64,000 nt of DNA, taken from contig JACQKD010000004.1 in NCBI GenBank assembly GCA_016204695.1, positions 251 to 64,250 of the forward strand, in the 5' to 3' direction. Source of the DNA: Candidatus Kaiserbacteria bacterium. Lineage in GTDB: Bacteria; Patescibacteriota; Minisyncoccia; Phycocordibacterales; UBA918. The position numbers and the translations under genes are program-made. Numbering within the stretch: the first letter of the stretch is position 1; every line of letters starts with the position of its first letter. Shown here piece by piece: positions 11,247-32,600 of the stretch. The notes below the pieces were generated by a model. It worked only from the letters and a program-made list of their open reading frames with translations, was not told where the DNA came from and did not search any database.

Positions 11247-11879
11247 ATGGGAAACGCAACAGCCGCGAAAGCCAAAAAGCACTTTGTGCTTTTTGGCTTT
11301 CGCGGCTTCACTCCCGGAAATGAGGAGCGAAGCGGCTTCACTTTGATTGAACTCCTCGTCGTAATTTCCATCATCGGTCTTCTCGCGAGTATCGTGATGG
11401 CATCGCTTAATTCCGCACGGGTGAAGGCCCGGGACGCCAGGCGTAAATCCGATCTCCGGGAGATAGCGCTTGCACTTGAACTATTTTATGACGCGAACGG
11501 AAGCTACATATCGACCGGGGCTACGGATGTAAACAATGAATACAACACGCTCGACAGCGCGGTGCTGGGCGGCGGCGGTACGTATGACTGGCATAGGCTC
11601 GATGGATTGGTGACCGGAGGATATATTTCCGTTCTTCCGGTAGACCCCGTGAATAAGGATATCGGCCCGTGGTGTTGGGTGCGGCCGGACGGAGGTCTGA
11701 AGGATTATATTTATACCTACACGAGCGACGGACAGCACTATATATTGTGCACATGGATGGAGAACACATCCGACCGCGATACGCTTCAGTTTAAAGATGC
11801 TCCCAATCCGTGGAATGCTTCGGAGAGACTATATGCGAATCGCAATTACTCCCCGTATAGTTATGTGATCGTGAAGTAG
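11247..11879 (+). CDS. Type IV pilin-like protein (prepilin-type N-terminal cleavage/methylation domain).
   Basis: RBS 'GGGAGG' then ATG. 'G|FTLIELLVVISIIGLLASIVMASLNSARVKARDARR' is a class III signal/pilin N-terminus, followed by a variable C-terminal domain. Confidence 0.75.
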   Translation: MGNATAAKAKKHFVLFGFRGFTPGNEERSGFTLIELLVVISIIGLLASIVMASLNSARVKARDARRKSDLREIALALELFYDANGSYISTGATDVNNEYNTLDSAVLGGGGTYDWHRLDGLVTGGYISVLPVDPVNKDIGPWCWVRPDGGLKDYIYTYTSDGQHYILCTWMENTSDRDTLQFKDAPNPWNASERLYANRNYSPYSYVIVK

Positions 11880-11912
11880 TATGGTGGGAATGTGCTCGCG
11901 GGATTGAATACT

Positions 11913-12458
11913 ATGGCGGTTTTTCTCAAAATGAATATACGAAGAAAAAAAGGAAATTGCGGCAAGGACTTGCGTGCAAGCGGTTTCACCTTGATCGAAC
12001 TCCTCGTCGTCATCTCCATCATCGGGCTTCTTGCGAGCGTGGTGATGGCGAGCCTCAACTCCGCACGAGCGAAAGCGCGCGATGCGCGACGCATGGCTGA
12101 TTTTAGAAATGTAACCTCGGCGTTGGACTTGTACTACGACAAATACGGTCGCTATCCTGCTTCGCCGAACGGCTGTTGCAGTGGCGGACCCGGCGGTACG
12201 CATAATCAAAGTTTTGAAGCGGTTACAGGCGCGCTTGTCGCAGAGGGATTTTTGACGGCAATACCGAAAGACCCTACAACCGCGAGCGCGTACATGCTCT
12301 ATGACTACGGCGGTACGATTGGTCCTATCACAGTGACCTATCTTGAGTCCATTAGCGCGACAACGGTTGGTCCGTCCAATTCGTGCCGACCGTTTGATCA
12401 GAATTGGTGCAGTCACACACTCCCCTCAACGGCGTATTGTATCTGTCATCCGTACTGA
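11913..12458 (+). CDS. Type IV pilin-like protein, paralogue 2.
   Basis: 'GFTLIELLVVISIIGLLASVVMASLNSARAKARDARR'. C-terminal domain has Cys pairs. Start could be 11913 or 11931. Confidence 0.7.
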   Translation: MAVFLKMNIRRKKGNCGKDLRASGFTLIELLVVISIIGLLASVVMASLNSARAKARDARRMADFRNVTSALDLYYDKYGRYPASPNGCCSGGPGGTHNQSFEAVTGALVAEGFLTAIPKDPTTASAYMLYDYGGTIGPITVTYLESISATTVGPSNSCRPFDQNWCSHTLPSTAYCICHPY

Positions 12459-12464
12459 CATTGT

Positions 12465-13145
12465 ATGAAGTTCATAAAGACAAAAAGGAACGGTCTCACT
12501 CCTTACAGGAGCAGTACACCTTTTGGATATTTCTTGTTCGCTTCGCTCCCAAAATATCTCAAAAGGTCTGTAAAGCCGTCCCATGGCTTTACACTTATCG
12601 AACTGCTCGTCGTTATTTCCATCATCGGCTTGCTCGCAAGCGTGGTGATGGCGTCGCTGAATAGTTCCCGCTCAAAGGCGAAGTGGGCGAGGATGATGTC
12701 GGACTTCAACCAAATGGGCAAGGCGGCGGAGCTGTTTATGGCGAATGAAAATCTGTACTCCTGCGATTCTCCTCCGGGATACGACGCGAGCTGGAATAGC
12801 GGCGGTCGGTACAGCCCGGCGTCGGAACTCGGTATCACTTGCCAAAACAAAGGCATCGTCGAAATGGGCTATCTCTCGCAGTGGCCGAAACCGCCGTGCG
12901 CAGGGTGGGATTATGACTGGGATAATTGGAGCCCCGCCGTAGCTCTTCCGACCGGAGGGGGACAGGTCGTGCGCATTACACTCCGAGGCCCGGCTCCCGC
13001 ATACGCGGCGATGTACTACTACTGCATATACGACACGCACGGCAGTACGGCATATCCATGCGGCGGCCAGTCGGGCGACCATGTCTATACGCTTGGCGGC
13101 AGTATGGTAAACGGAACATCCGGCGGGTCGCTGGTGTGCCAGTGA
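12465..13145 (+). CDS. Type IV pilin-like protein, paralogue 3, with an unusually long leader.
   Basis: 'HGFTLIELLVVISIIGLLASVVMASLNSSRSKAKWARM' is preceded by ~42 aa. The true start may be an internal non-ATG codon. Cys-rich C-terminal domain. Confidence 0.65.
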   Translation: MKFIKTKRNGLTPYRSSTPFGYFLFASLPKYLKRSVKPSHGFTLIELLVVISIIGLLASVVMASLNSSRSKAKWARMMSDFNQMGKAAELFMANENLYSCDSPPGYDASWNSGGRYSPASELGITCQNKGIVEMGYLSQWPKPPCAGWDYDWDNWSPAVALPTGGGQVVRITLRGPAPAYAAMYYYCIYDTHGSTAYPCGGQSGDHVYTLGGSMVNGTSGGSLVCQ

Positions 13146-14426: not shown

Positions 14427-15038
14427 TTACGTCCGGTTTTTCAGTGCGTTTTTGATGGTTTCGGGGTCGGCGTATTCGAGCTCGGAGCCGGTGGAGAGAC
14501 CGCGGCCGAGAGTGGAGATTTTGATATTTTTTTCCTCTGTTTCTTTGAGAAGCGTGCCGACATAGCGGGCGGTGTTCTCTCCGTCGGGATTGACCGAGAA
14601 GGCGAGGATAACCTCTGCGAGCCCCTCTTTTGCGCGCATCTCCGCAATGCCTTTCAGTGCGCCGCCGCGCAGTTTGATATTCTCCTGCGGCTCAAGCAGG
14701 GGGACGGTACCGCCGAGCACGAAGTAGTAGCCGTCGTAGATGCCGGAGCGTTCGATCGGTGGAATGTCGGAGTCGCGTTCGACGACCATGAGGAGCTCGT
14801 GGTTGCGGTTTGCATCATTACATATTTCGCAGAGCGTATTGCCATTGTCGCGGGCGAAGTACCGGAAGCAGTGCGCGCACTCGGTCACTTTTGCCTGTAC
14901 GTCGGCGATGGCATCGGCGAGCGCGCGGAGCGATTGCGGGTCTTCGGTGAGGAGATGGTACACAAACCGCCGTGCTTGTCTCGGCCCGATGCCGGGGAAC
15001 CGTTCAAAATGTCGCACCAGTTCATCGAAAGAAGTCAT
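14427..15038 (-). CDS. recR: Recombination protein RecR.
   Basis: 'FPGIGPRQARRFVYHL' HhH, C4 zinc finger 'CAHCFRY...CEICND', and a Toprim region. The longer track ORF (to 15311) is read-through antisense of the pilin gene. Confidence 0.9.
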   Translation of the reverse strand: MTSFDELVRHFERFPGIGPRQARRFVYHLLTEDPQSLRALADAIADVQAKVTECAHCFRYFARDNGNTLCEICNDANRNHELLMVVERDSDIPPIERSGIYDGYYFVLGGTVPLLEPQENIKLRGGALKGIAEMRAKEGLAEVILAFSVNPDGENTARYVGTLLKETEEKNIKISTLGRGLSTGSELEYADPETIKNALKNRT

Positions 15039-15087
15039 GGGTCGGGTGTTAAAGTATGTTTTGGACTGTAGTACTATACCAGGAAAT

Positions 15088-15636
15088 ATGAAATCTATCG
15101 GAAAGGGATTCACTCCGACAAACGAGGAGCAAAGTGGATGTTCACATACATTTTGTCCGAGTGCCGTCGGAGCAAATCCTCGCAGAGGATTTACCCTTAT
15201 TGAACTTCTCGTCGTTATCGCAATCATCGGACTGCTCGCGAGCGTGGTGATGGCATCACTCAATAGTGCGCGAGCGAAAGCGCGGGATGCGCGGCGACAA
15301 TCCGACCTCAACCAGATATATCTTGCCTTACAACTCTACTTTGACGCCAACGGGTACTTGCCTACCACCTCCTCGTACGGCGGCGCAAATCCGGGCGGGT
15401 GGGACTACAGTTCGCAAGGCGACTTTCTGCCGTTTTTACGAACCGCGGGTTTTTTCTCGTCGGTGCCCGTAGACCCCGTCAATAATGGAACCGGCGATGT
15501 CTACTACGGGGGTAGCGGGTACGCGTACGCGTATTACTGTTATCCCGGTGAGAATTCGGTCGCGCTCGGCGCGCGGCTCGACAACGGCGTGGTGATTTGG
15601 AAAAGCAATCACGAGGCGAATTTCAAGTGCCAGTAA
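15088..15636 (+). CDS. Type IV pilin-like protein, paralogue 4.
   Basis: ATG at 15088. 'RRGFTLIELLVVIAIIGLLASVVMASLNSARAKARDARRQSDL'. Tyr/Gly-rich variable C-terminal domain. Confidence 0.75.
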   Translation: MKSIGKGFTPTNEEQSGCSHTFCPSAVGANPRRGFTLIELLVVIAIIGLLASVVMASLNSARAKARDARRQSDLNQIYLALQLYFDANGYLPTTSSYGGANPGGWDYSSQGDFLPFLRTAGFFSSVPVDPVNNGTGDVYYGGSGYAYAYYCYPGENSVALGARLDNGVVIWKSNHEANFKCQ

Positions 15637-15676
15637 CGTTCAAAGGAACGTAAAACACCGGACAGGTTTGAGTGCA

Positions 15677-17134
15677 TCAAAAATCGTCGTCTTGCGGGGC
15701 GCCGAAGCTCTCTTCGCCGCCGCGCTTTGTCTCAAGCGAGAGGAAGGTGGTGCGCTTCTCATCAAAATAGAGCTCGACTGCGCCGGTGGGACCATTGCGG
15801 TGTTTCTCGACGAGAATTTGCGCGATGTTCGGACGGTCGGAATTTTCGTTCGTCTTGTCATCGCGATGGATGAACATCACGACGTCCGCATCTTGCTCGA
15901 TGCTGCCAGAATCCCTCAAGTCGGAGAGACGCGGTTTGCCGCCGCGCTGTTCGACGGCGCGCGAGAGCTGTGAGAGCGCGAGCACCGGCACGTCGAGCTC
16001 GCGCGCCATGATCTTGAGTGCGCGCGATATCTCGGTGACCTGTTGGACCATCGAGTCGTGATATTTCATGTTCGCGGGCATCATGAGCTGGAGATAATCG
16101 ACGACGATAAGGCCGAGCCCGAACTCGTTTTTCAGCCGCCGAGCCGCGGAGCGCATCTTGAGGATGGAATTGCCCGGCTGGTCGTCTATGTGGATGGGCG
16201 CTTCGGAGAGCCGCGCCATCGCTTCCTGCACGAGGACAAACTCTTCGTCGGTGGAGAGCTTGCCGGTGCGGAGTTTCCATGCGTCCACTTTCGCCTCGGC
16301 GGCGAGCATGCGGTCGACGAGCTGTTGGTCACTCATTTCAAGGGAGAAAATGCCGACGGGCGTTTTGTATTCGCACGCGGCATGGCGCGCGATATCAAGC
16401 GCGAAAGCAGTCTTTCCGACCGACGGCCGCGCGGCGAGGATGACGAGGTCCGACTTCTGCAAGCCTGCGAGCAGATTATCAAGCGCGGGGAAGCCGGTCT
16501 GCACGCCGCGGATTTCGTCCTTGGCATTATGCAGGCGGTCGAGCCGGTCCCATGCTTCGCCGAGTGAGTTTTTAATGGGCGTGAATTTCTGCGCGGTCGG
16601 CGATTGCGTCACCTGATAGATTTTCTTTTCGGCGGTGTCGAGCGCTTCGTCGACGTCTTCCGGGTTCCCGAAGCCGATTTCGGCGATGTCGTCGGCGGCG
16701 CGGATGAGGCCGCGAAGCACCGCCTTGTCCTGCACCACTTCGGCGTAGTACTGGGCGTTGCCCGCCGCGGGAACATGTTCAATCAGTTCGGTGAGGTAGC
16801 TTGCGCCGCCGATGCGGTCAAGCGCGTTTTTGTCTTTGAGCTTATGCGTGACGGAGAGGAGGTCGATGGGGTTGCTCTTGGTGAAAATTTCCAGCATCGC
16901 GGTGAAAATCTCGCGGTGCTTGTCCGCGTAAAATGATTCGGGATACACCGACACCGAAATGTCGTGCATGCTCTCGGGCTTCAGCATAATGGCGCCGAGG
17001 AGCGCCTGCTCGGCATCAAGGTTGTGCGGGATGGTCCGCAGTGCCTTCGAGACGACCGGCGGTTGCCGAGACGATGATGTGCGCGGTGCGTAGGGCGATG
17101 TTTGTGGAGTCGTTTCCGCCATAGTGAGCGTCAT
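15677..17134 (-). CDS. dnaB: Replicative DNA helicase DnaB.
   Basis: 'NLDAEQALLGAIML' N-terminal domain, Walker A 'ARPSVGKTAFALDIARHAA', 'GLIVVDYLQLM', and 'RELDVPVLALSQLSRAVEQR'. Confidence 0.95.
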   Translation of the reverse strand: MTLTMAETTPQTSPYAPRTSSSRQPPVVSKALRTIPHNLDAEQALLGAIMLKPESMHDISVSVYPESFYADKHREIFTAMLEIFTKSNPIDLLSVTHKLKDKNALDRIGGASYLTELIEHVPAAGNAQYYAEVVQDKAVLRGLIRAADDIAEIGFGNPEDVDEALDTAEKKIYQVTQSPTAQKFTPIKNSLGEAWDRLDRLHNAKDEIRGVQTGFPALDNLLAGLQKSDLVILAARPSVGKTAFALDIARHAACEYKTPVGIFSLEMSDQQLVDRMLAAEAKVDAWKLRTGKLSTDEEFVLVQEAMARLSEAPIHIDDQPGNSILKMRSAARRLKNEFGLGLIVVDYLQLMMPANMKYHDSMVQQVTEISRALKIMARELDVPVLALSQLSRAVEQRGGKPRLSDLRDSGSIEQDADVVMFIHRDDKTNENSDRPNIAQILVEKHRNGPTGAVELYFDEKRTTFLSLETKRGGEESFGAPQDDDF

Positions 17135-17193
17135 TGTATCACGACGGGCGTGCGCCCGCGCCCGTCATTTTTCGTCACTTTTGCACAACTTGT

Positions 17194-17250
17194 GCATGTA
17201 GTTATCCACGCATATCCCCTGACGACATAACTTGCCATTGTCTATCCACA
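17194..17250. promoter_or_regulatory. dnaB upstream region with two DnaA-box-like 9-mers.
   Basis: TTATCCACG (~17202-17210) and CTATCCACA (~17242-17250), each one mismatch from TTATCCACA. A GACGGGCG...CGCCCGTC hairpin lies immediately upstream (~17142-17165). Confidence 0.35.
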
Positions 17251-17291
17251 TGGGGTAGTATGTCGCCTACCTAGCAATAGGTACAATAAAC

Positions 17292-17330
17292 AAAGCCCCC
17301 ACCATGATGGTGAAGGGCTTTGAATGTAAA
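17292..17330 (-). terminator. Intrinsic terminator-like nested hairpin for leftward transcripts.
   Basis: AAAGCCCC-CACCAT-G-ATGGTG-AAGGGCTTT: a nested perfect stem. On the minus strand it is followed by a TTTGTTTATT tract. Confidence 0.45.
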
Positions 17331-17726
17331 AGTACTAAGAAGCTATTGCTTCTTCAGAAACATCCTCTCTAGCCAGAGGATTTTCTGTTTCACTATCTCT
17401 CGTAGAGAGTGGTGGTGCCCAGCTACCATTGAGGTGCTGACACCAAACCATACCCGTTTTCTTGTCGAGGTGACAGTGAGCGAATTGACTGCTCATGTTG
17501 GTTTCTGCTATTTAGTTGTGTAAAGATCGACCCCTCTAAGAAACGAAAAGACTCCACTGGCAGATACTCGCGGTAAAGCAAGTATCAGCCACTAGAGTCT
17601 TTCTCCCACCGTAGAACAACTTTTCGTTTCTAATAATTACCTCACCGCTATGTATCTGCCGCCTCATTGTTTCCGTAGAGGTACATACAGTATGAACTCT
17701 TTAATTTTTTGTGCAAGTGCTTGGTG

Positions 17727-18056
17727 CTAGTTTCCCCCCATTAGTCTACCGTTGAGATATTCGCGGAAAAAGAAACCGAGTCCAAATAATACCACTGTCT
17801 TTGCGTTACTGGTGATTTCCACAAAAAGTTTTTGGAGCGCACGTACCCCTTCGGTGTCAGGGAGTTTGCTTTGTGTTACTCCGGCAATGATAATCAGGAC
17901 AAGAAAGACACATAGGGCGAGTGCCAATACGACCATTAAGCCAATCTGTATCCAATTTTTTGCAGTTTCAAAGCGCTGTGTACGTCTGAAATCCCCTATG
18001 TGGACATCAGGTGTTGACTCGATTGATTGAGGAGGGTTCTTCTTTGTCATAATCAC
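17727..18056 (-). CDS. Small hypothetical membrane protein (one TM helix), low-GC.
   Basis: 109-aa ORF overlapping the upstream 80-aa ORF by 4 nt (coupled). Hydrophobic core 'LMVVLALALCVFLVLIIIAGV'. Confidence 0.4.
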   Translation of the reverse strand: MIMTKKNPPQSIESTPDVHIGDFRRTQRFETAKNWIQIGLMVVLALALCVFLVLIIIAGVTQSKLPDTEGVRALQKLFVEITSNAKTVVLFGLGFFFREYLNGRLMGGN

Positions 18057-18295
18057 AGACGCCGTAAGTCAATTTCATAGCGGCCATTCTTTTTCTCTAT
18101 GGTTATAGTTGTGCCTTCTTTTCCTACATCAATTAGATTGAGTCCTTTCACCAAAACATCACCGAGACGTTCTTCGGGTATACCAAGCTCACGAGCCACC
18201 TTGCGCAATTTTGCTAGTGCCCCATTTCGGAATGTGACACTGAACTCTTGGGGCTCTTGCTCTCGCGCTTCTTCTGTGTTAGCTCTTTCATCCAT
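18053..18295 (-). CDS. Small hypothetical soluble protein (80 aa), low-GC, immediately downstream of the transposase.
   Basis: Acidic N-terminus, then 'FRNGALAKLRKVARELGIPEERLGDVLVKGLNLI'. No recognisable domain. Confidence 0.4.
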   Translation of the reverse strand: MDERANTEEAREQEPQEFSVTFRNGALAKLRKVARELGIPEERLGDVLVKGLNLIDVGKEGTTITIEKKNGRYEIDLRRL

Positions 18296-18343
18296 AATGG
18301 CATGATACTATAGGATGCACTATGAATAAAGCTCATTTCCTCT

Positions 18344-19213
18344 CTATCTTGCGCCGCGTAATACAGCACCAAGCAACACCGCGAACCTCGCGCTGTCGTT
18401 GCCAGAATTGTTCCGATGAAAGACGAAAGCGTCCAAATACGACTGCAAATGCTCCTTCGAAATAGTCTTGTGCGTGCCTGCGATTGAGCGTTTGAGGTGA
18501 GCGAAAAAGGTTTCAATGGTATTTATGTGAATCCTGTCCCACGCGTACTCTTTCTTGCTGTGGTTGACTTTGAGGTGGCGGTACACCTTCGAGGATGACT
18601 TATAAGTAGCGGCATTGTCTGTCATCAGCAGAGCGTCTTTTGATACATGACTTTCAAGGAACGCTTCTATTACGGGTAAACCTGCGTTGGGTACTACTTT
18701 CAGCTTCGCTTTGCCCCCGCGTGAGACTGCACCCATGACAACGCTCTTTGCCGCCATCGCCTCGCTCTGTCGGTGATTGTCCGTGCCTGCGCGAAAGCGG
18801 CCGCCGAAGTACCCCGTGTCCATTTCTACGTCTCCCGTTAGCTTTTCTTTATCCTGTCCGAGCGCAGAGCGTATCTGCTTGTGCATCCGCCACGCGCATT
18901 TGTACGTTACGCCAATCTGCCGTTCCAGTTCTTTGGCGGAGATACCACTTTTGGCGTTTGAGAAGATAAAGAGAGCATAGAACCAGCCCGTGAGGGGAGT
19001 ATCGGACTTGTGGAAGATCGTCCCCGCCGTGGGTGCGATCTGAAAGCGGCATTTTGAGCACTGGTACTGCTTTCGGGCTTTCACACGCCGATACTCGCCC
19101 CCACAGGAGCATTTGCGGCTGTGGAGGGCATCGAATATGAAATCCAAACAAACGTCCTCGGTGGAAAATTGAGCTTTTAAGTCCTTGATTGTGTATTTAT
19201 TGATTCTAGCCAT
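18344..19213 (-). CDS. IS1595-family (ISXO2-like) DDE transposase.
   Basis: N-terminal zinc-ribbon 'CSCGGEY...CSKCRFQ' followed by the IS1595-type DDE catalytic domain ('GDVEMDTGYFGG', 'LMTDNAATYKS', 'HINTIETFFAHLKRSI'). Confidence 0.8.
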   Translation of the reverse strand: MARINKYTIKDLKAQFSTEDVCLDFIFDALHSRKCSCGGEYRRVKARKQYQCSKCRFQIAPTAGTIFHKSDTPLTGWFYALFIFSNAKSGISAKELERQIGVTYKCAWRMHKQIRSALGQDKEKLTGDVEMDTGYFGGRFRAGTDNHRQSEAMAAKSVVMGAVSRGGKAKLKVVPNAGLPVIEAFLESHVSKDALLMTDNAATYKSSSKVYRHLKVNHSKKEYAWDRIHINTIETFFAHLKRSIAGTHKTISKEHLQSYLDAFVFHRNNSGNDSARFAVLLGAVLRGAR

Positions 19214-19299
19214 ATACCTACAGTATAGACCATAGGATTATGTTGTCAAGGGATAGGCATGTAGTTATCCCCACACAGCAGTGTAGAGGATCAGAGGGA

Positions 19300-20181
19300 T
19301 TATTTGGTAAATCTAAAGCTGGAGAGTATTTCGTTCAAAAGAGAATCATAGACACTATCTTTTGATGCGTCATATTCAACCATAGAAAAAAATATCCATG
19401 TAGCATGGTCTTTTTCATAAATTGTAGCAGTCCGATAATTTTGAGACGCTCGTGCCCACCCGGTGTATGAAATTTTGATCGCCGGACTCCCATCAAGCAG
19501 TATGGATTCTTCTTTGAAATCATCGTTGTGGATACTTGATGCCTTCTCGTCATTAACGAGTTCTTCAATAGTAAAATTTCTTCCTTTCTCCCTTGAATAG
19601 TAGAATGCTCCATGGAGGATAGAAAGTTTACTAAGGAAATCCGGTGACTGAAAATCTACTCTTGTTCCTCCACTATCTGAATACTCAGGGGTCACACTCC
19701 AATCAAGGGGATGTTGCATTGAAAATCCCATCTGTTGATTTTGATACGTCTTCCAGTCGGCGGAAGTGGCAGATTGCGTGACAGGTTTTGCGGTCGGTAC
19801 CCAGCCGTTTTCAAAACCTTCGGGGCAGAGATAGTCGCACATCTCGAAATCGCATACTTTTTTGGTTTCTTGCTCGCATGTCTCCTTGGAGCGCCATCTG
19901 TTTTTGCCTTCTCCCGGGCATGCCGCAAACTCGCATTTTGGTCCGGTACGTCCGACGTAGGTTCCGTCCGGACATTGTTTCGCTTCTTGTGTACACGCTG
20001 TTTCTTCCGGTGCTGAAGGGGGAGCGGGGGCCGTATCGGCGTAGTCCGGCATCTGACTCTGTGTATACACATACCCGCCGACTCCTGCGGCGATGATGAG
20101 CGTCACGATGATCCCGAAGGTCGAACTAATCGCACCTCTGTGGTGTACGCGAGCATCTTGCATTGTCTCTAATCCTATCAC
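19300..20181 (-). CDS. Hypothetical membrane-anchored extracytoplasmic protein with a Cys-rich segment.
   Basis: N-terminal TM helix 'FGIIVTLIIAAGVGG', then a 10-Cys region (CTQEAKQCPDG...CEFAACPG...CDFEMCDYLCPEG) and a ~170-aa C-terminal domain. Its start overlaps the cysS stop (ATGA). Confidence 0.5.
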   Translation of the reverse strand: MIGLETMQDARVHHRGAISSTFGIIVTLIIAAGVGGYVYTQSQMPDYADTAPAPPSAPEETACTQEAKQCPDGTYVGRTGPKCEFAACPGEGKNRWRSKETCEQETKKVCDFEMCDYLCPEGFENGWVPTAKPVTQSATSADWKTYQNQQMGFSMQHPLDWSVTPEYSDSGGTRVDFQSPDFLSKLSILHGAFYYSREKGRNFTIEELVNDEKASSIHNDDFKEESILLDGSPAIKISYTGWARASQNYRTATIYEKDHATWIFFSMVEYDASKDSVYDSLLNEILSSFRFTK

Positions 20182-21674
20182 GCCTTCGTGACGCGCACGC
20201 CCTTGGGAGTGTCTTCGACGAGGTAGCCCTTGAGGTTGATGGCCTCACGCAATGCGTCCGCGCCGTCCCAATCTTTTCGCTTTCGGGCATGCTCCCGTTC
20301 GGAGAGAAGCTTTTGTACTTCGTCGGGTAAATCGCTCACTTCGATGACGTTCAGGGAGCGCATTTCATTTTCGGAGATATCGCTGACACGCAGACCAAAT
20401 ACGGCGTCGAAATGTTTGATGGTTGCGGCTTTGTCGGGAAGCGGATACTTGGTGTCCTTCACGAGCTCCCAGATCAGGGCGAGTGCTCGAGGCGTGTCGA
20501 GATTGTTATTGATGGCGTGGTGAAATTGCTCGCGGTACGATTCGATCACCACTCCGTCCGCACAGGTGCCGCCGGACTCCCTTGCGCATCCTTCGACGAC
20601 AAACCGCTTCAGCCGAAAGAGCGCCTGTTTCGCGCCGTCGAGCGCCTCGAAGGTAAAGTTCATGGGCGATTTGTAGTGGCCGGTCAGGAGCCAATAGCGA
20701 TACTCGAGCGGGGAGTAGCCGCGGTCGCGGAGCTGGCGAAGCGTAATGCCGTTGCGGAGTGATTTCGATATCTTGGTGGCGTCTATTGTAATAAATTCGC
20801 CATGCATCCAATAGCGCACATAGGGCGATTTGCCGGTTGCGGATTCCGCTTGCGCGATTTCGCCGTTGTGATGCGTCGCGATATGGTCGATACCTCCGGT
20901 GTGGATATCGATCTGCTTGCCGAGCGTGGCAAACGCCATTGCGGTGCATTCGATATGCCAGCCGGGGAATCCCTTGCCCCATACACTGTCCCAGCCGAGC
21001 TCGCCGAATTTCCAGAGCGCAAAGTCGGCAGGATGCTTTTTTTCGGGGTTTGTCTCGATGCGCGCGCCCTCTTTCTGCGCCGCAAGGTTGATGTTGCCGA
21101 GCCGTCCGTACGCGGGGAAGCGCGAAATATCGAAATAAATGCCGTCGCGTGTCCGGTAGGTATAGCCCTTCTCGACGAGCGTGCGAATCAGGGCGATCTG
21201 TTCGCCGACATAGTCGCTTGCGCGCGTGTACTGCGAGGGTGGCAGATTGCCGATCGCATCCATGTCTTCCTTGAATGCTTCGGCAAATACGCTTGTGACT
21301 GCGCGCATATTCTCAAGATTGATCGGCTTGCCGGAACGTTGCAGTGCGAGCATGACTTTGTCCTCGCCCGCGTCCGCATCGTCGGTGAGATGTCCGAAGT
21401 CGGTGATGTTGATGGTGTGATTTACCGCAAAGCCGTTGTATCCGAGCGTACGTTTCAGAATATCGGCGAAGACATATGCGCGCATGTTGCCGATATGCAC
21501 GTAGTCGTAGACGGTCGGCCCGCAGGTGTACATGGTCACGCTCGAAGAGTTGCGCGGCTCGAAGTGTTCCGTAAGGTCCGAAAGGGTATTGCAGAGAAAG
21601 AGTGGCAGGGACGGCGTTTGGGACCGCTGTTTCTGTTTTGTGTCGCGTCCCGCCCGGGACAAAAATGCTACCAT
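20178..21674 (-). CDS. cysS: Cysteine--tRNA ligase.
   Basis: 'MYTCGPTVYDYVHIGN' (HIGH), 'FPGWHIECTAMA', 'KISKSLRN' (KMSKS). The N-terminal ~45 aa of the ORF may be upstream of the true start. Confidence 0.9.
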   Translation of the reverse strand: MVAFLSRAGRDTKQKQRSQTPSLPLFLCNTLSDLTEHFEPRNSSSVTMYTCGPTVYDYVHIGNMRAYVFADILKRTLGYNGFAVNHTINITDFGHLTDDADAGEDKVMLALQRSGKPINLENMRAVTSVFAEAFKEDMDAIGNLPPSQYTRASDYVGEQIALIRTLVEKGYTYRTRDGIYFDISRFPAYGRLGNINLAAQKEGARIETNPEKKHPADFALWKFGELGWDSVWGKGFPGWHIECTAMAFATLGKQIDIHTGGIDHIATHHNGEIAQAESATGKSPYVRYWMHGEFITIDATKISKSLRNGITLRQLRDRGYSPLEYRYWLLTGHYKSPMNFTFEALDGAKQALFRLKRFVVEGCARESGGTCADGVVIESYREQFHHAINNNLDTPRALALIWELVKDTKYPLPDKAATIKHFDAVFGLRVSDISENEMRSLNVIEVSDLPDEVQKLLSEREHARKRKDWDGADALREAINLKGYLVEDTPKGVRVTKA

Positions 21675-21755
21675 ATGGCATCAGCATACTCCTCCGACAA
21701 GCGAGAGGCAAAACAAAGTACCAGGCGTTCTCATGTTGTTTGAGCGCGGTCGGTT

Positions 21756-22664
21756 TTACATCCAGTGCTTGTGTCTGAAAAATGCAAAAAGGACGGTCGC
21801 GGCGACGACCATAATACCGATCACGATCCAAAAATCGCCGCGGGTGCCGGCCAGAGGCAGGGTCGTATTCATGCCGAAAATGGACGAAAGCAGAGCAAGC
21901 GGAAACGTAACGGAGGCCAGAATCGTGAGCGTCTTCATGATCTCATTTTGTTTGGTCGTGAGCAGGGTGTTGTTGGTCTCGCGCAATTCGATGCCGGTCG
22001 CCGCGAGTGTTGAGAGATACTGCGTCAGGTGCGCGAATGCGCGATCGAACGTGTCGAGGGAAGCGGCAAACGATGCCCCGAACAGTGCGCCGAAATGGGT
22101 TTTGGCTTGTTCAAGCACGTACTCGTGCCCGACGAGCGTCTGCCGGAACATGATGAGCCGCTGACTCATCTGCGACAGATCAAGCACCATTTCCTTCTCG
22201 CGTCCGCTCACTATTTCTTCTTCGATGTCGACGAGGCGCGCTTCTATGTAGTCAAGCTTCTGCGACAACGCTCCGTACAGCGCGTTCATGACCGCGAGGA
22301 ACAGGTGCCCTCCGTGCAGGCGCTTGCGTGTTTTTTGCAGGGTGGCCACCACCTCGAACTCTTTTGCGAACTGATGAAGCGCGGCGATGTCCGCGTAGCG
22401 CACCGTAATCAGGGCATTCTTGGTGACGATGAATTTCATTTCCTGGGGGAACTCCCGCTGGGAGAGTTTGACGACCGGGAAATCGAGGGTGATCTTGACG
22501 GCGCCCGGCACACTGACGACATCCGCTCGCCGTGTGGGTACGGCGAGGTCGGTGACGAGTCCCGGATCGATTGCGTATTCCTCCATCAGCTCGCGGATCT
22601 CTTCCGCCGTCGGTTCGAGGACGTCAATCCATGCGGTATTGTCCTGTAGATAGCGGACAATCAT
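21756..22664 (-). CDS. corA: Magnesium/cobalt transporter CorA.
   Basis: C-terminal 'FPLALLSSIFGMNTTLP' GMN motif and two TM helices. Start taken at 'MIVRYLQDN'. Confidence 0.85.
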   Translation of the reverse strand: MIVRYLQDNTAWIDVLEPTAEEIRELMEEYAIDPGLVTDLAVPTRRADVVSVPGAVKITLDFPVVKLSQREFPQEMKFIVTKNALITVRYADIAALHQFAKEFEVVATLQKTRKRLHGGHLFLAVMNALYGALSQKLDYIEARLVDIEEEIVSGREKEMVLDLSQMSQRLIMFRQTLVGHEYVLEQAKTHFGALFGASFAASLDTFDRAFAHLTQYLSTLAATGIELRETNNTLLTTKQNEIMKTLTILASVTFPLALLSSIFGMNTTLPLAGTRGDFWIVIGIMVVAATVLFAFFRHKHWM

Positions 22665-31471: not shown

Positions 31472-32431
31472 CTACTGCGTGCCGCCGTGGAATTTCTCGT
31501 GGACGTCGCGCAGGCGCTTATTGGTGAGGTGGGTGTAGATCTGTGTTGTTGCGACATTGCGATGCCCGAGAAGCTCCTGGACACTACGCAGATCGGCGCC
31601 GTTACCTAACAGGTCGGTGGCGTAGGTGTGGCGAAGCGTGTGGGGTGTCACCTTTTTTGAGAGGCCGGCAAGTATTGCGCATCGTGAGATTGTCTGCTCT
31701 ATGGAACGCGGGGAGAGCCGTTTGTTCTCGGTGCGCGAACTGTAGTTGATAAACAAAGGAGTATGGACATCGGTGCGTGTCTTGATGTAGTCGCGCAACC
31801 AGAGAGCCGCACGCGGCGAAATGAAAATCGTGCGTACGTGTTTTCCTTTGCCGACGATGGAGAGCTCGTATGTGCGCGTCGTACTGTTGTCCTCAAGCAT
31901 CGACAACTGGTCGATGTTGAGCGCGGTGAGTTCGGAGATGCGCATGCCGGAAGAAAACAACAGCTCCATGATGGTACGGTCGCGCAGGCCCGTCGGCGAG
32001 GTGACATCCGGCACTTTGAGCATCTTTTCTATGTCGCGCACTTCAAGGAAGGTAATCGTTTCTTCGTCCTTTTGTTTGGCGAGCTTCACTTTGACCGACG
32101 GCAGACATTCGATGTCCCGCTCCGCGAGAAAATCCAACAGTGCGCGCAATGCGATCAGGTAATAATTTTGCGATTTTTTCGAGAGGTATCCGCCACTGTG
32201 CGTTCTGTGTTTGCGTGCGAGATAGAGTCGGTAGTCCCAGATATGTTCTGCGGAGAGCTGGTGGGGGAGCAGGGAAGGGTGGCCCGCTTCCCTCAACCAC
32301 TTCACAAAAAGCTTCAAATACTGTTCGTAATTGCGTTGGGTATTATTCGAAAGACCTTTCTCGATTTCGCAGTATTCGAGGAAGGGAAGAATGTATTCGG
32401 TGATCGGTTCGGTGCTCTTGACAGGTCTCAT
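31472..32431 (-). CDS. Tyrosine site-specific recombinase, XerC/XerD family.
   Basis: N-terminal SAM-like domain, C-terminal 'RDRTIMELLFSSGMRISELTALNI', 'HTLRHTYATDLLGNGADLRSVQELLGHRNVATTQIYTH' with the R-H-R-Y catalytic residues. Confidence 0.85.
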   Translation of the reverse strand: MRPVKSTEPITEYILPFLEYCEIEKGLSNNTQRNYEQYLKLFVKWLREAGHPSLLPHQLSAEHIWDYRLYLARKHRTHSGGYLSKKSQNYYLIALRALLDFLAERDIECLPSVKVKLAKQKDEETITFLEVRDIEKMLKVPDVTSPTGLRDRTIMELLFSSGMRISELTALNIDQLSMLEDNSTTRTYELSIVGKGKHVRTIFISPRAALWLRDYIKTRTDVHTPLFINYSSRTENKRLSPRSIEQTISRCAILAGLSKKVTPHTLRHTYATDLLGNGADLRSVQELLGHRNVATTQIYTHLTNKRLRDVHEKFHGGTQ

Positions 32432-32437
32432 AGGGGG

Positions 32438-32600
32438 GTGTGGATAACTCTGCTATCCCAGATTAGCTGATTCGCACAATATATGTAAAGCGAACTAATC
32501 CACAGTTTTCCTGTGGTATTAATTCACTTTGCATATCGCAGATTTTACAAACCCCTTGGTTCTCCAATAATCTGCTCAAAGCGAACTAATCAACAGTTTG
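32438..32600. repeat. xerC/D-family upstream region: perfect DnaA box, 21-bp direct repeat pair containing DnaA-box-like cores, and a dif-like AT core.
   Basis: TGTGGATAA (32438-32446). AAAGCGAACTAATCCACAGTTT (32486-32507) and AAAGCGAACTAATCAACAGTTT (32578-32599). TTCGCACAATATATGTAAAGCG (~32470-32492) weakly resembles XerCD dif sites. Confidence 0.4.

Follow-up and report, generated by a model that had tools for sequence, protein, structure and literature searches.

A 64-kb stretch of a Candidatus Kaiserbacteria genome, called the window below, contains a single, apparently intact 2,055-bp insertion sequence (IS) of the IS1595 family at positions 17207-19261, upstream of dnaB. Comparison with related sequences makes it very probable that this element is complete, and that the clade to which it belongs selects the consensus sequence of the DnaA box as its target, in a fixed register, and rebuilds the box on insertion. 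The clade is confined mainly to Patescibacteria (candidate phyla radiation), and its choice of the DnaA box in combination with box-restoring termini appears to be an unreported variant of DDE transposition; a search of open-access text found no paper that links IS1595 elements to DnaA boxes. A preliminary description, made from the window sequence alone, had noted a transposase gene with low-GC cargo, a 14-bp direct repeat on either side of it and a DnaA-box-like motif at one border. The window can now be said to hold a complete IS with defined ends, and both the motif and the 14-mer are accounted for.

Results

Ends of the element

Convincing terminal repeats cannot be seen in the window sequence without homologues, and the preliminary description had reported no clean ones, but homologous elements expose 25-bp imperfect inverted repeats, CATGCCTATCCCTTGACAACATAAT and CACGCATATCCCCTGACGACATAAC, which match at 20 of 24 positions. 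DNA similarity to three homologous loci (L003, L004 and L007; labels of this form denote such loci throughout) reaches as far as a conserved block, TATCCCTTGACAACATAAT, some 40-50 nt upstream of the transposase ATG, and ends there. The block recurs in inverted form, in the window at 17213-17231 and in the relatives at a distance of 1-3.7 kb on the downstream side of the transposase; six more bases outside this block are also derived from the element. The repeat core TATCCC-TGAC is common to all related elements, and the -35 hexamer TTGACA of the transposase promoter, which sits in the left inverted repeat (IRL), is part of the core in every relative.

An 8-bp duplication, TAGTTATC, lies directly outside the inverted repeats, a geometry common to the other bounded IS1595 elements of the survey below (104 unique). 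Among the possibilities first considered, an IS with passenger genes is borne out, with repeats and duplication bounding the transposase plus its cargo over the whole 2,055 bp and not the transposase gene only. Neither a decayed element nor a duplication of part of the dnaB upstream region finds support. Read on the minus strand, the element consists of IRL, the transposase gene, genes for 80-, 109- and 53-aa proteins, two terminators and the right inverted repeat (IRR; Table 1).

The window has exactly two copies of the 14-mer GCATGTAGTTATCC, one at 17194-17207 and the other at 19257-19270, both pointing the same way; the left copy had been placed correctly and the right one, given as 19258-19271, was off by one. 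With two mismatches tolerated the direct repeat grows to 19 nt. Its GCATG is host flank on the left and element tip on the right, its next eight bases are the duplication, and its final C is tip on the left and flank on the right; it is longer than the duplication because the element tips match the flank at six bases. The earlier argument that two such 14-mers 2 kb apart are not due to chance stands within a 2.7-kb stretch, where we estimate an expectation of about 0.01 for an exact pair, but several exact pairs are expected anywhere in 64 kb, and it is the placement of the pair that is informative, not its existence. Shuffles of the whole window, with up to two mismatches tolerated, gave a mean of 0.24 14-mer matches, two of 100 shuffles reaching two matches.

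The 14-bp repeat might also be read as an attachment-site-like core, or as a local duplication upstream of dnaB, with the enclosed block as an integrated island. Such a reading would fit a repeat that exceeds the 8-bp duplication of the family and inverted repeats that are not obvious without comparative data, yet we consider it extremely improbable. There is no integrase or recombinase in the block, inverted repeats and an exact 8-bp duplication abut its ends as in the bounded IS1595 elements, and six of the 14 bases belong to the element tips. Direct repeats longer than 8 bp are, moreover, common in the clade (20 of 28 elements, versus 22 of 76 others), and are so because tips match flank in the same way.

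The transposase and the integrity of the window copy

The presence of an IS1595-type DDE domain in the 289-aa open reading frame (ORF), as first described, is confirmed by Pfam DDE_Tnp_IS1595 (PF12762; 4.6e-34, profile positions 1-153 of 153) and NCBIfam NF033547 (171.4 bits, with a cutoff of 75). The putative zinc ribbon matches no Pfam zinc-ribbon model at E<=0.1; its pattern C35-x-C37 ... C52-x2-C55 is invariant in 24 homologues, as are D132 and D199, and E234 is near-invariant. The motif HINTIETFFAHLK fits the IS1595/IS1016 catalytic motif as quoted (PMC12561309). More than 7,000 homologues (about 7,200) were found in 5.8 billion proteins, the close ones coming almost all from Patescibacteria. 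The nearest non-identical transposase is 69% identical, and by the usual thresholds the element would be a new IS.

Judged by its promoter, zinc-ribbon cysteines and D132/D199/E234, the window copy is apparently intact. It could instead be a fixed, immobile relic, or a domesticated transposase with a host function upstream of dnaB, which we regard as rather doubtful. This would agree with its being a single copy in the window (no second one was found in the 64 kb), with the 20/24 match of its repeats, with a left tip that reads CATGCC where most relatives read CAC, and with the distance to the closest other transposase. However, the copy has an intact ORF, promoter and set of catalytic residues, and its duplication is without mismatch; repeats matching at 15-21 of 24 positions are normal for cargo-bearing relatives; and relatives lie in many genomic contexts with no conserved gene order, which speaks against domestication. 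Two minimal 1.0-kb elements of the clade, L109 and L115, have perfect 24/24 repeats and lie in perfect boxes, which may be signs of recent activity in the clade. A distant-mode search of PLSDB plasmids returned no match.

The target of the clade

Elements were bounded by a search blind to DnaA boxes, the only conditions being an 8-bp duplication free of mismatches and repeats that agree at 15 or more of 24 positions. It was run on 238 loci taken from collections of genomes, metagenomes and viruses, a sample of 80 loci per collection out of several thousand homologues. It bounded 112 of the 238 loci, yielding 104 unique IS1595 elements with that of the window included, and two more close relatives were added after the survey. 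The clade set comprises 30 distinct elements with transposases at least 50% identical to that of the window and pairwise DNA identity below 81%, while 76 more distant IS1595 elements (transposases 33-50% identical), bounded by the same procedure, form the control.

In the empty sites reconstructed for the clade (n = 30), duplication positions 2-8 have A in 18, G in 18, T in 25, T in 26, A in 23, T in 29 and C in 24, and the next four host bases C in 29, A in 26, C in 28 and A in 23. The resulting consensus, (A)GTTATC|CACA, is that of the DnaA box, TTATCCACA, with the cut following base 5, in a single register. Scored in this register, 13 of the 30 elements match the box at 9/9 positions, eight at 8/9, five at 7/9 and four at six or fewer, and elements are found in both orientations relative to the box (17 versus 13). 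The full 9-mer was used here for orientation, with the same rule applied to the control set; in a 20-element reconstruction, in which host CACA was not used in orienting the sites, host CACA was already present in 15-18 of 20. None of the 76 control elements scores above 6/9 in the box register, and one reaches 8/9 when the whole 32-nt site is scanned; they have mostly GG(T/C)... tips and AT-rich 8-bp duplications.

The switch of target coincides with a switch of the outermost six bases of the element. The core TATCCCTTGAC is common to the window element and the 76 distant ones, whereas the outermost 6 nt differ, reading CAC(A/G)CC in the clade and usually GG... in the distant elements. With clade tips of CAC(A/G), the junction becomes TTATC|CAC(A/G), that is TTATCCAC(A/G), which recreates the box and leaves the element with a box on either side where there had been a single one. 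The target in the window is TTATCCCCA (8/9; 65-73 nt upstream of the dnaB start), found at the distal junction at 19266-19274 (19265 in a second listing), and the dnaB-proximal junction at 17203-17211 (17202 in a second listing) reads TTATCCACG (8/9), composed of the duplication and the tip CACG. The preliminary description was right that the DnaA-box-like motif TTATCCACG is present, but there is more to it than its place in the dnaB control region: it is the joint between a target used across the clade and the tip.

The element arrived by ordinary DDE transposition, duplicating 8 bp of target (TAGTTATC). Insertion in this clade is not random: the staggered cut is set to leave TTATC at the end of the duplication with host CACA directly after it, TTATCCACA being cut between positions 5 and 6. 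In the window, the dnaB-proximal copy of the target TTATCCCCA became TTATCCACG. The pre-insertion sequence between the PsbP-like gene and dnaB is reconstructed as ...GCATGTAGTTATCCCCACA..., and an empty site is predicted to join ...GTGCATGTAGTTATC directly to CCCACACAGC.... Rebuilding of the box, together with the terminator of the element at 17316-17296, would keep the insertion harmless to dnaB and limit damage. A TGnTACAAT-type promoter sequence stands about 10 nt upstream of the dnaB ATG (seen by eye; the promoter scan did not flag it).

Direct readout or recruitment by DnaA

The cut falls inside the 9-mer, a position difficult to square with a box occupied by DnaA, and we infer from this that the transposase itself probably reads the motif. 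The pentamer TATCC is common to the target and to the repeat core, and the cut falls within it.

Alternatively, DnaA bound to the box might recruit or position the transposase, like TnsD at attTn7 or XerC as proposed for the IS1202 family. The preferred sequence is indeed the universal DnaA-box consensus plus two preceding bases, AG (18 of 30 each), and the strong boxes R1 and R4 of E. coli also read GTTATCCACA. Surveyed sites (flanking ORFs read by eye) are mostly intergenic, and many lie upstream of replication, repair and division genes: besides dnaB in the window, the contexts include lexA in three genomes, mraZ/rsmH twice, recR-topA and trxB-ftsZ, along with the pilC-pilin spacer twice and rpoB. 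Box-like motifs are also found inside elements near the right repeat, several relatives carrying one 40-80 nt inside IRR, and the IS1202 family is a precedent for targeting the site of a host protein (PMC10132070). Recruitment by DnaA nevertheless seems unlikely to us: known protein-guided systems insert beside the bound site and not between positions 5 and 6 of it, TATCC is shared by the target and the repeat core that the transposase binds, and no insertion at the dnaA-dnaN origin region is seen among the surveyed sites, none of which adjoins dnaA or dnaN.

A further possibility is that the motif does not function as a DnaA box, being a pseudo-end or the site of another Patescibacterial regulator that matches the consensus incidentally. 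The host bases next to the duplication equal the tip, CACA, and TATCC recurs in the repeat core, as would suit a pseudo-end; the three independent sites upstream of lexA could hint at the operator of another regulator; and box-like 9-mers show no general excess in the window (15 observed versus about 14 expected). This reading, too, we judge improbable, for a 9/9 match to TTATCCACA in 13 of 30 sites far exceeds an end resemblance of 4-5 nt, the flanks are not repeat-like beyond CACA, and the motif is neither palindromic nor repeated as LexA operators are.

Several points weigh against direct readout of a DnaA box by the transposase, and against the wider interpretation. The argument for direct readout is one from geometry. 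No empty site was found in a close relative, exact-protein look-ups for the transposase and DnaA having returned the same locus only, and the pre-insertion sequence is thus reconstructed and not observed. Four of the 30 elements, for example L368 and L011, lie outside a box. Extra box-like 9-mers are only about 2.3-fold enriched near the sites (0.71 per kb within 500 nt versus 0.31 per kb beyond), with a further box or two inside 70 nt of some sites (L004, L011, L029), and insertions beside dnaA/dnaN are missing; the targets are thus no more than candidate DnaA-bound sites. In the window there is one copy only, with repeats that are imperfect at 20/24. Finally, the five-base identity of flank and left tip, GCATG, is unusual, other elements of the clade having 0-3 of 6 matches on the side away from the box; we attribute it to chance, with a probability of about 0.5% per site and about 12% for at least one case among 28.

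Observations on related loci and boxes

Different elements (2,148 bp versus 1,011 bp, with different duplications and orientations) occupy the same spacer in different genomes (L013/L023 and L009/L010/L097). The spacers concerned are that between pilC and a pilin gene and that upstream of lexA, which implies conserved boxes at these promoters of Patescibacteria.

A Parcubacteria metagenome-assembled genome (CAVYBN01) carries three copies of a minimal relative of 988 bp (L026, L027 and L028), with a transposase about 50% identical and tips of GAGAGG/CAGAGG. These are not in DnaA boxes and have 17 nt in common, TTTTGACTTAGAATTTT, spanning one flank and the start of the duplication, which suggests that their subclade has a different repeated target sequence. 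The closest relative, that with the 69% identical transposase, lies at 4940-7060 of L003, a phage-like contig with terminase and ParB-methyltransferase. It has good inverted repeats and no target-site duplication (AAGTTATA versus GAGAAACG), as would be expected if copies had recombined or the phage genome had been rearranged.

The only perfect DnaA box of the window, TGTGGATAA, and a second box, matching at 8/9 and 57 nt away, are at 32439-32447 and 32496-32504 (the listed coordinates may be one base low). The perfect box precedes a XerC/D-like recombinase gene (31472-32431, minus strand), whose start is about 8 nt away, and is a potential, unoccupied landing site for the element. A replication origin near dnaB was considered and rejected, the window having neither a GC-skew switch nor a cluster of boxes.

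Table 1. Coordinates of the element, its parts and the adjacent genes in the window
Feature	Position	Strand	Remarks
dnaB	15677-17134	-	
Target-site duplication TAGTTATC, dnaB-proximal	17199-17206	.	Perfect 8-bp direct repeat abutting inverted repeat
IRR CACGCATATCCCCTGACGACATAAC	17207-17231	+	20/24 positions match left repeat
Subterminal DnaA-box-like motif CTATCCACA	17243-17251	+	8/9; about 40 nt inside IRR
Intrinsic terminator	17296-17316	-	9-pair stem, then T-run; closes element transcription unit before dnaB
ORF4, 53-aa protein MSSQFAHCHLDKKTGMVWCQHLNGSWAPP...	17335-17496	-	tblastn matches in L003, L014/L110
Long hairpin	17539-17631	-	25-nt arms 17547-17602, 12-nt outer stem, then U-run
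ORF3, 109-aa protein	17727-18056	-	One transmembrane segment, ~residues 40-58; conserved GFFFREYLN C-terminus
ORF2, 80-aa soluble protein	18053-18295	-	Conserved core FSVTFRNGAL..L.KVA
IS1595-family DDE transposase, 289 aa	18344-19213	-	CxC...CxxC putative zinc ribbon; D132, D199, E234, K241
Predicted transposase promoter	19222-19249	-	TTGACA, 16 nt, TATACT; 11/12
IRL CATGCCTATCCCTTGACAACATAAT	19237-19261	-	Comparison with homologous elements
Target-site duplication TAGTTATC, distal	19262-19269	.	Followed by host CCCACA; original target box TTATCCCCA kept
PsbP_2-like gene	19300-20181	-	
cysS	20178-21674	-	

Passenger genes

Where a two-gene cargo had been described, there are three genes, ORF2, ORF3 and ORF4. 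The first two were taken for a coupled pair, and both ORFs are indeed found on the same strand with a 4-nt overlap as called, but homologues of ORF3 align from its third residue, an ATG; the true start may lie there, in which case the overlap is not real. In 5.8 billion proteins, ORF2 has six homologues and ORF3 has 16. Neither has a significant match in Pfam, PHROGs, PADLOC, NCBIfam or PDB profiles, and the proposed check for toxin-antitoxin (TA) or abortive-infection functions likewise gave no matches in TA and defence libraries (PHROGs, PADLOC, Pfam, NCBIfam), so that it is the gene order alone, a small soluble followed by a small membrane protein, that recalls TA and defence modules. The sequence pattern of ORF2 is suggestive of a ribbon-helix-helix protein; we do not claim this assignment, the AlphaFold pLDDT being 54 and the PDB profile search returning noise.

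The ORF2-ORF3 pair also occurs without a transposase, on the phage-like contigs L240 and L244, the latter with terminase, chaperonin and lysin, and on the chromosomes L241 (upstream of mraZ) and L243. The pair is thus cargo that can travel, separate from the machinery of transposition. Cargo differs widely among relatives, the minimal 1.0-kb elements carrying none and about eight elements, by eye, a pair comparable to ORF2-ORF3, with one small protein soluble and the other in the membrane. The passenger genes have probably been borrowed from phages of these bacteria. Other cargo in the clade, also read by eye, includes HicA/HicB-like pairs (L004, L099), a reverse transcriptase with a four-helix-bundle partner (L019) and a DUF3800-like gene (L100), and the clade seems to ferry addiction- and defence-type genes.

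By tblastn, ORF4 has a match at 1.8e-9 on the same strand of L003, and one at 7.8e-6 in L014/L110, where the strand is the opposite one. Among 1.84 billion representative proteins it has 17 matches at E<=1e-3, about 12 of which are proteins of 47-78 aa with a common C..WCQH.NGSWAPPF motif. This motif resembles a unit, ...IYTDTATSTVYVQNADGTWTPINGKDG..., that is repeated 9-12 times in two of the proteins matched by ORF4, the giant collagen-like P0143 (1,729 aa) and P0144 (925 aa), and ORF4 may be a free-standing copy of a beta-hairpin repeat from fibre-like proteins.

L105 repeats its left flank and duplication internally (TGTGGACAAAAA), at about 943-955 of the element and just past the end of the transposase gene. 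The copy resembles the old right junction of a minimal element, which hints that cargo can be gained when the regenerated box is hit a second time and the inner ends are then lost. A decayed inner right repeat after the transposase gene, as a sign of cargo capture by read-through, was not found in the window, where the best match is 13/25.

Structured region downstream of ORF3

The roughly 400 nt downstream of ORF3, first described as hairpin-rich and non-coding, are strongly structured, the 441 nt at 17290-17730 reaching z = -6.8 against shuffles on the gene strand and -6.0 on the other, but they are not non-coding, for ORF4 lies within them. The stretch is homologous only to that of L003 (nhmmer 7.8e-11). 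There the long hairpin is kept with eight two-sided compensatory changes and no broken pair, G-U pairs on the minus strand included, and its 17547-17602 arms can be read as the putative intrinsic terminator of ORF3; at the position equivalent to 17296-17316, L003 has a terminator of unrelated sequence. Rfam gave no match over 15000-22000 at E<=1, and an exact-pattern scan of viral contigs for a conserved 14-mer yielded chance matches only. A large structured non-coding RNA, suggested at first by the z-score and the compensatory pairs with L003, was set aside as the leading interpretation, since the conserved island is the ORF4 coding sequence, conserved as protein even on the opposite strand, and the big hairpins precede U-runs; the hairpins appear to be mainly intrinsic terminators.

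The neighbourhood

All genes of the neighbourhood, from dnaB through cysS, are on the minus strand. The block had been called markedly AT-richer than its flanks. This is so relative to dnaB (GC of 0.43-0.47 over 17200-18700 versus 0.58-0.61), but not for the centre of the transposase gene, at 0.53-0.57, nor relative to the host gene at 19300-19600, at 0.37. The 3' half of that PsbP_2-like gene (19300-19750), at 0.37-0.41, has the lowest GC of the region, below that of the IS, and the 5' half has 0.56; the gene may be a mosaic or a recent acquisition. Pilin-like genes with a GFTLIELLVVIAIIG N-terminus lie at 11328-12737 and 14740-15636, their 5' parts being repeated with 72-84% DNA identity. 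No tRNA or tmRNA genes were found in the window.

Discussion

On balance, and by a narrow preference, we favour the broader proposition that IS1595 elements of one clade, spread across the Patescibacteria, have come to use the DnaA box as a landing site of their own and have evolved termini by which it is restored on both sides. They would be the first known DDE insertion sequences with the recognition sequence of the replication initiator as target. If this is true, DnaA may participate in target choice or in the control of transposition, and the regenerated site would permit repeated insertion in the same box, a possible route by which phage-derived cargo is acquired or exchanged. Sequence-specific DDE insertion sequences are rare, and the use of a near-universal motif that is repaired on insertion would be a new strategy, one that would permit survival in tiny, gene-dense genomes as well as movement among divergent hosts and phages. 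Occupied sites could map candidate DnaA-regulated promoters in unculturable organisms, and the change of the tip from GG to CAC, coupled to a change of target within one family, offers a tractable case of the evolution of target specificity.

IS1595 subgroups with passenger genes, among them ISNwi1, ISSod11 and ISNha5, were reportedly described by Siguier, Gagnevin and Chandler in 2009 (cited in PMC12561309). The window element and its clade resemble the family in their transposase with a putative zinc ribbon and DDE(K) residues, the 8-bp size of the duplication (PMC12561309), the single transposase gene, the optional passenger genes between transposase and right repeat, and the core TATCCCTTGAC. 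ISApl4 has the GG... ends typical of the family and an AT-rich 8-mer duplication without strict sequence (PMC12561309). The clade differs in ending with CAC(A/G)CC and in inserting into a defined sequence of 10-11 nt.

A DnaA-box sequence at a transposon end is also a feature of IS50/Tn5 (Yin and Reznikoff 1987; Phadnis and Berg 1987): its outside end is said to carry such a box, and DnaA to act as a host factor. Elements of the window clade, once inserted, similarly have box sequences beside or within their ends. The Tn5 box is, however, built into the end, and its targets are not DnaA boxes, whereas in the window clade the box is the target and is completed at the junction from five duplicated and four tip bases. 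IS30 and the IS911/IS3 family insert beside sequences resembling their own ends. In the window clade, similarly, the host bases CACA that adjoin the insertion equal the element tip, but the resemblance to the ends extends over 4-5 nt only, and the conserved target of 9-11 nt is not the inverted repeat of the element.

The closest parallel in the literature is the IS1202 family (ISAjo2 type), the 'dif site hunters', which have a TnsB-like transposase of 441-457 aa and a 5-bp duplication, insert 5 bp from the XerC side of dif in one orientation and occupy that site in many genomes and plasmids (PMC10132070). Like them, the elements of the window clade are DDE insertion sequences, and take as their target the recognition sequence of a host DNA-binding protein that is universal; unlike them, they have an unrelated transposase, cut within the motif and not beside it, insert in either orientation and restore what they have cut.

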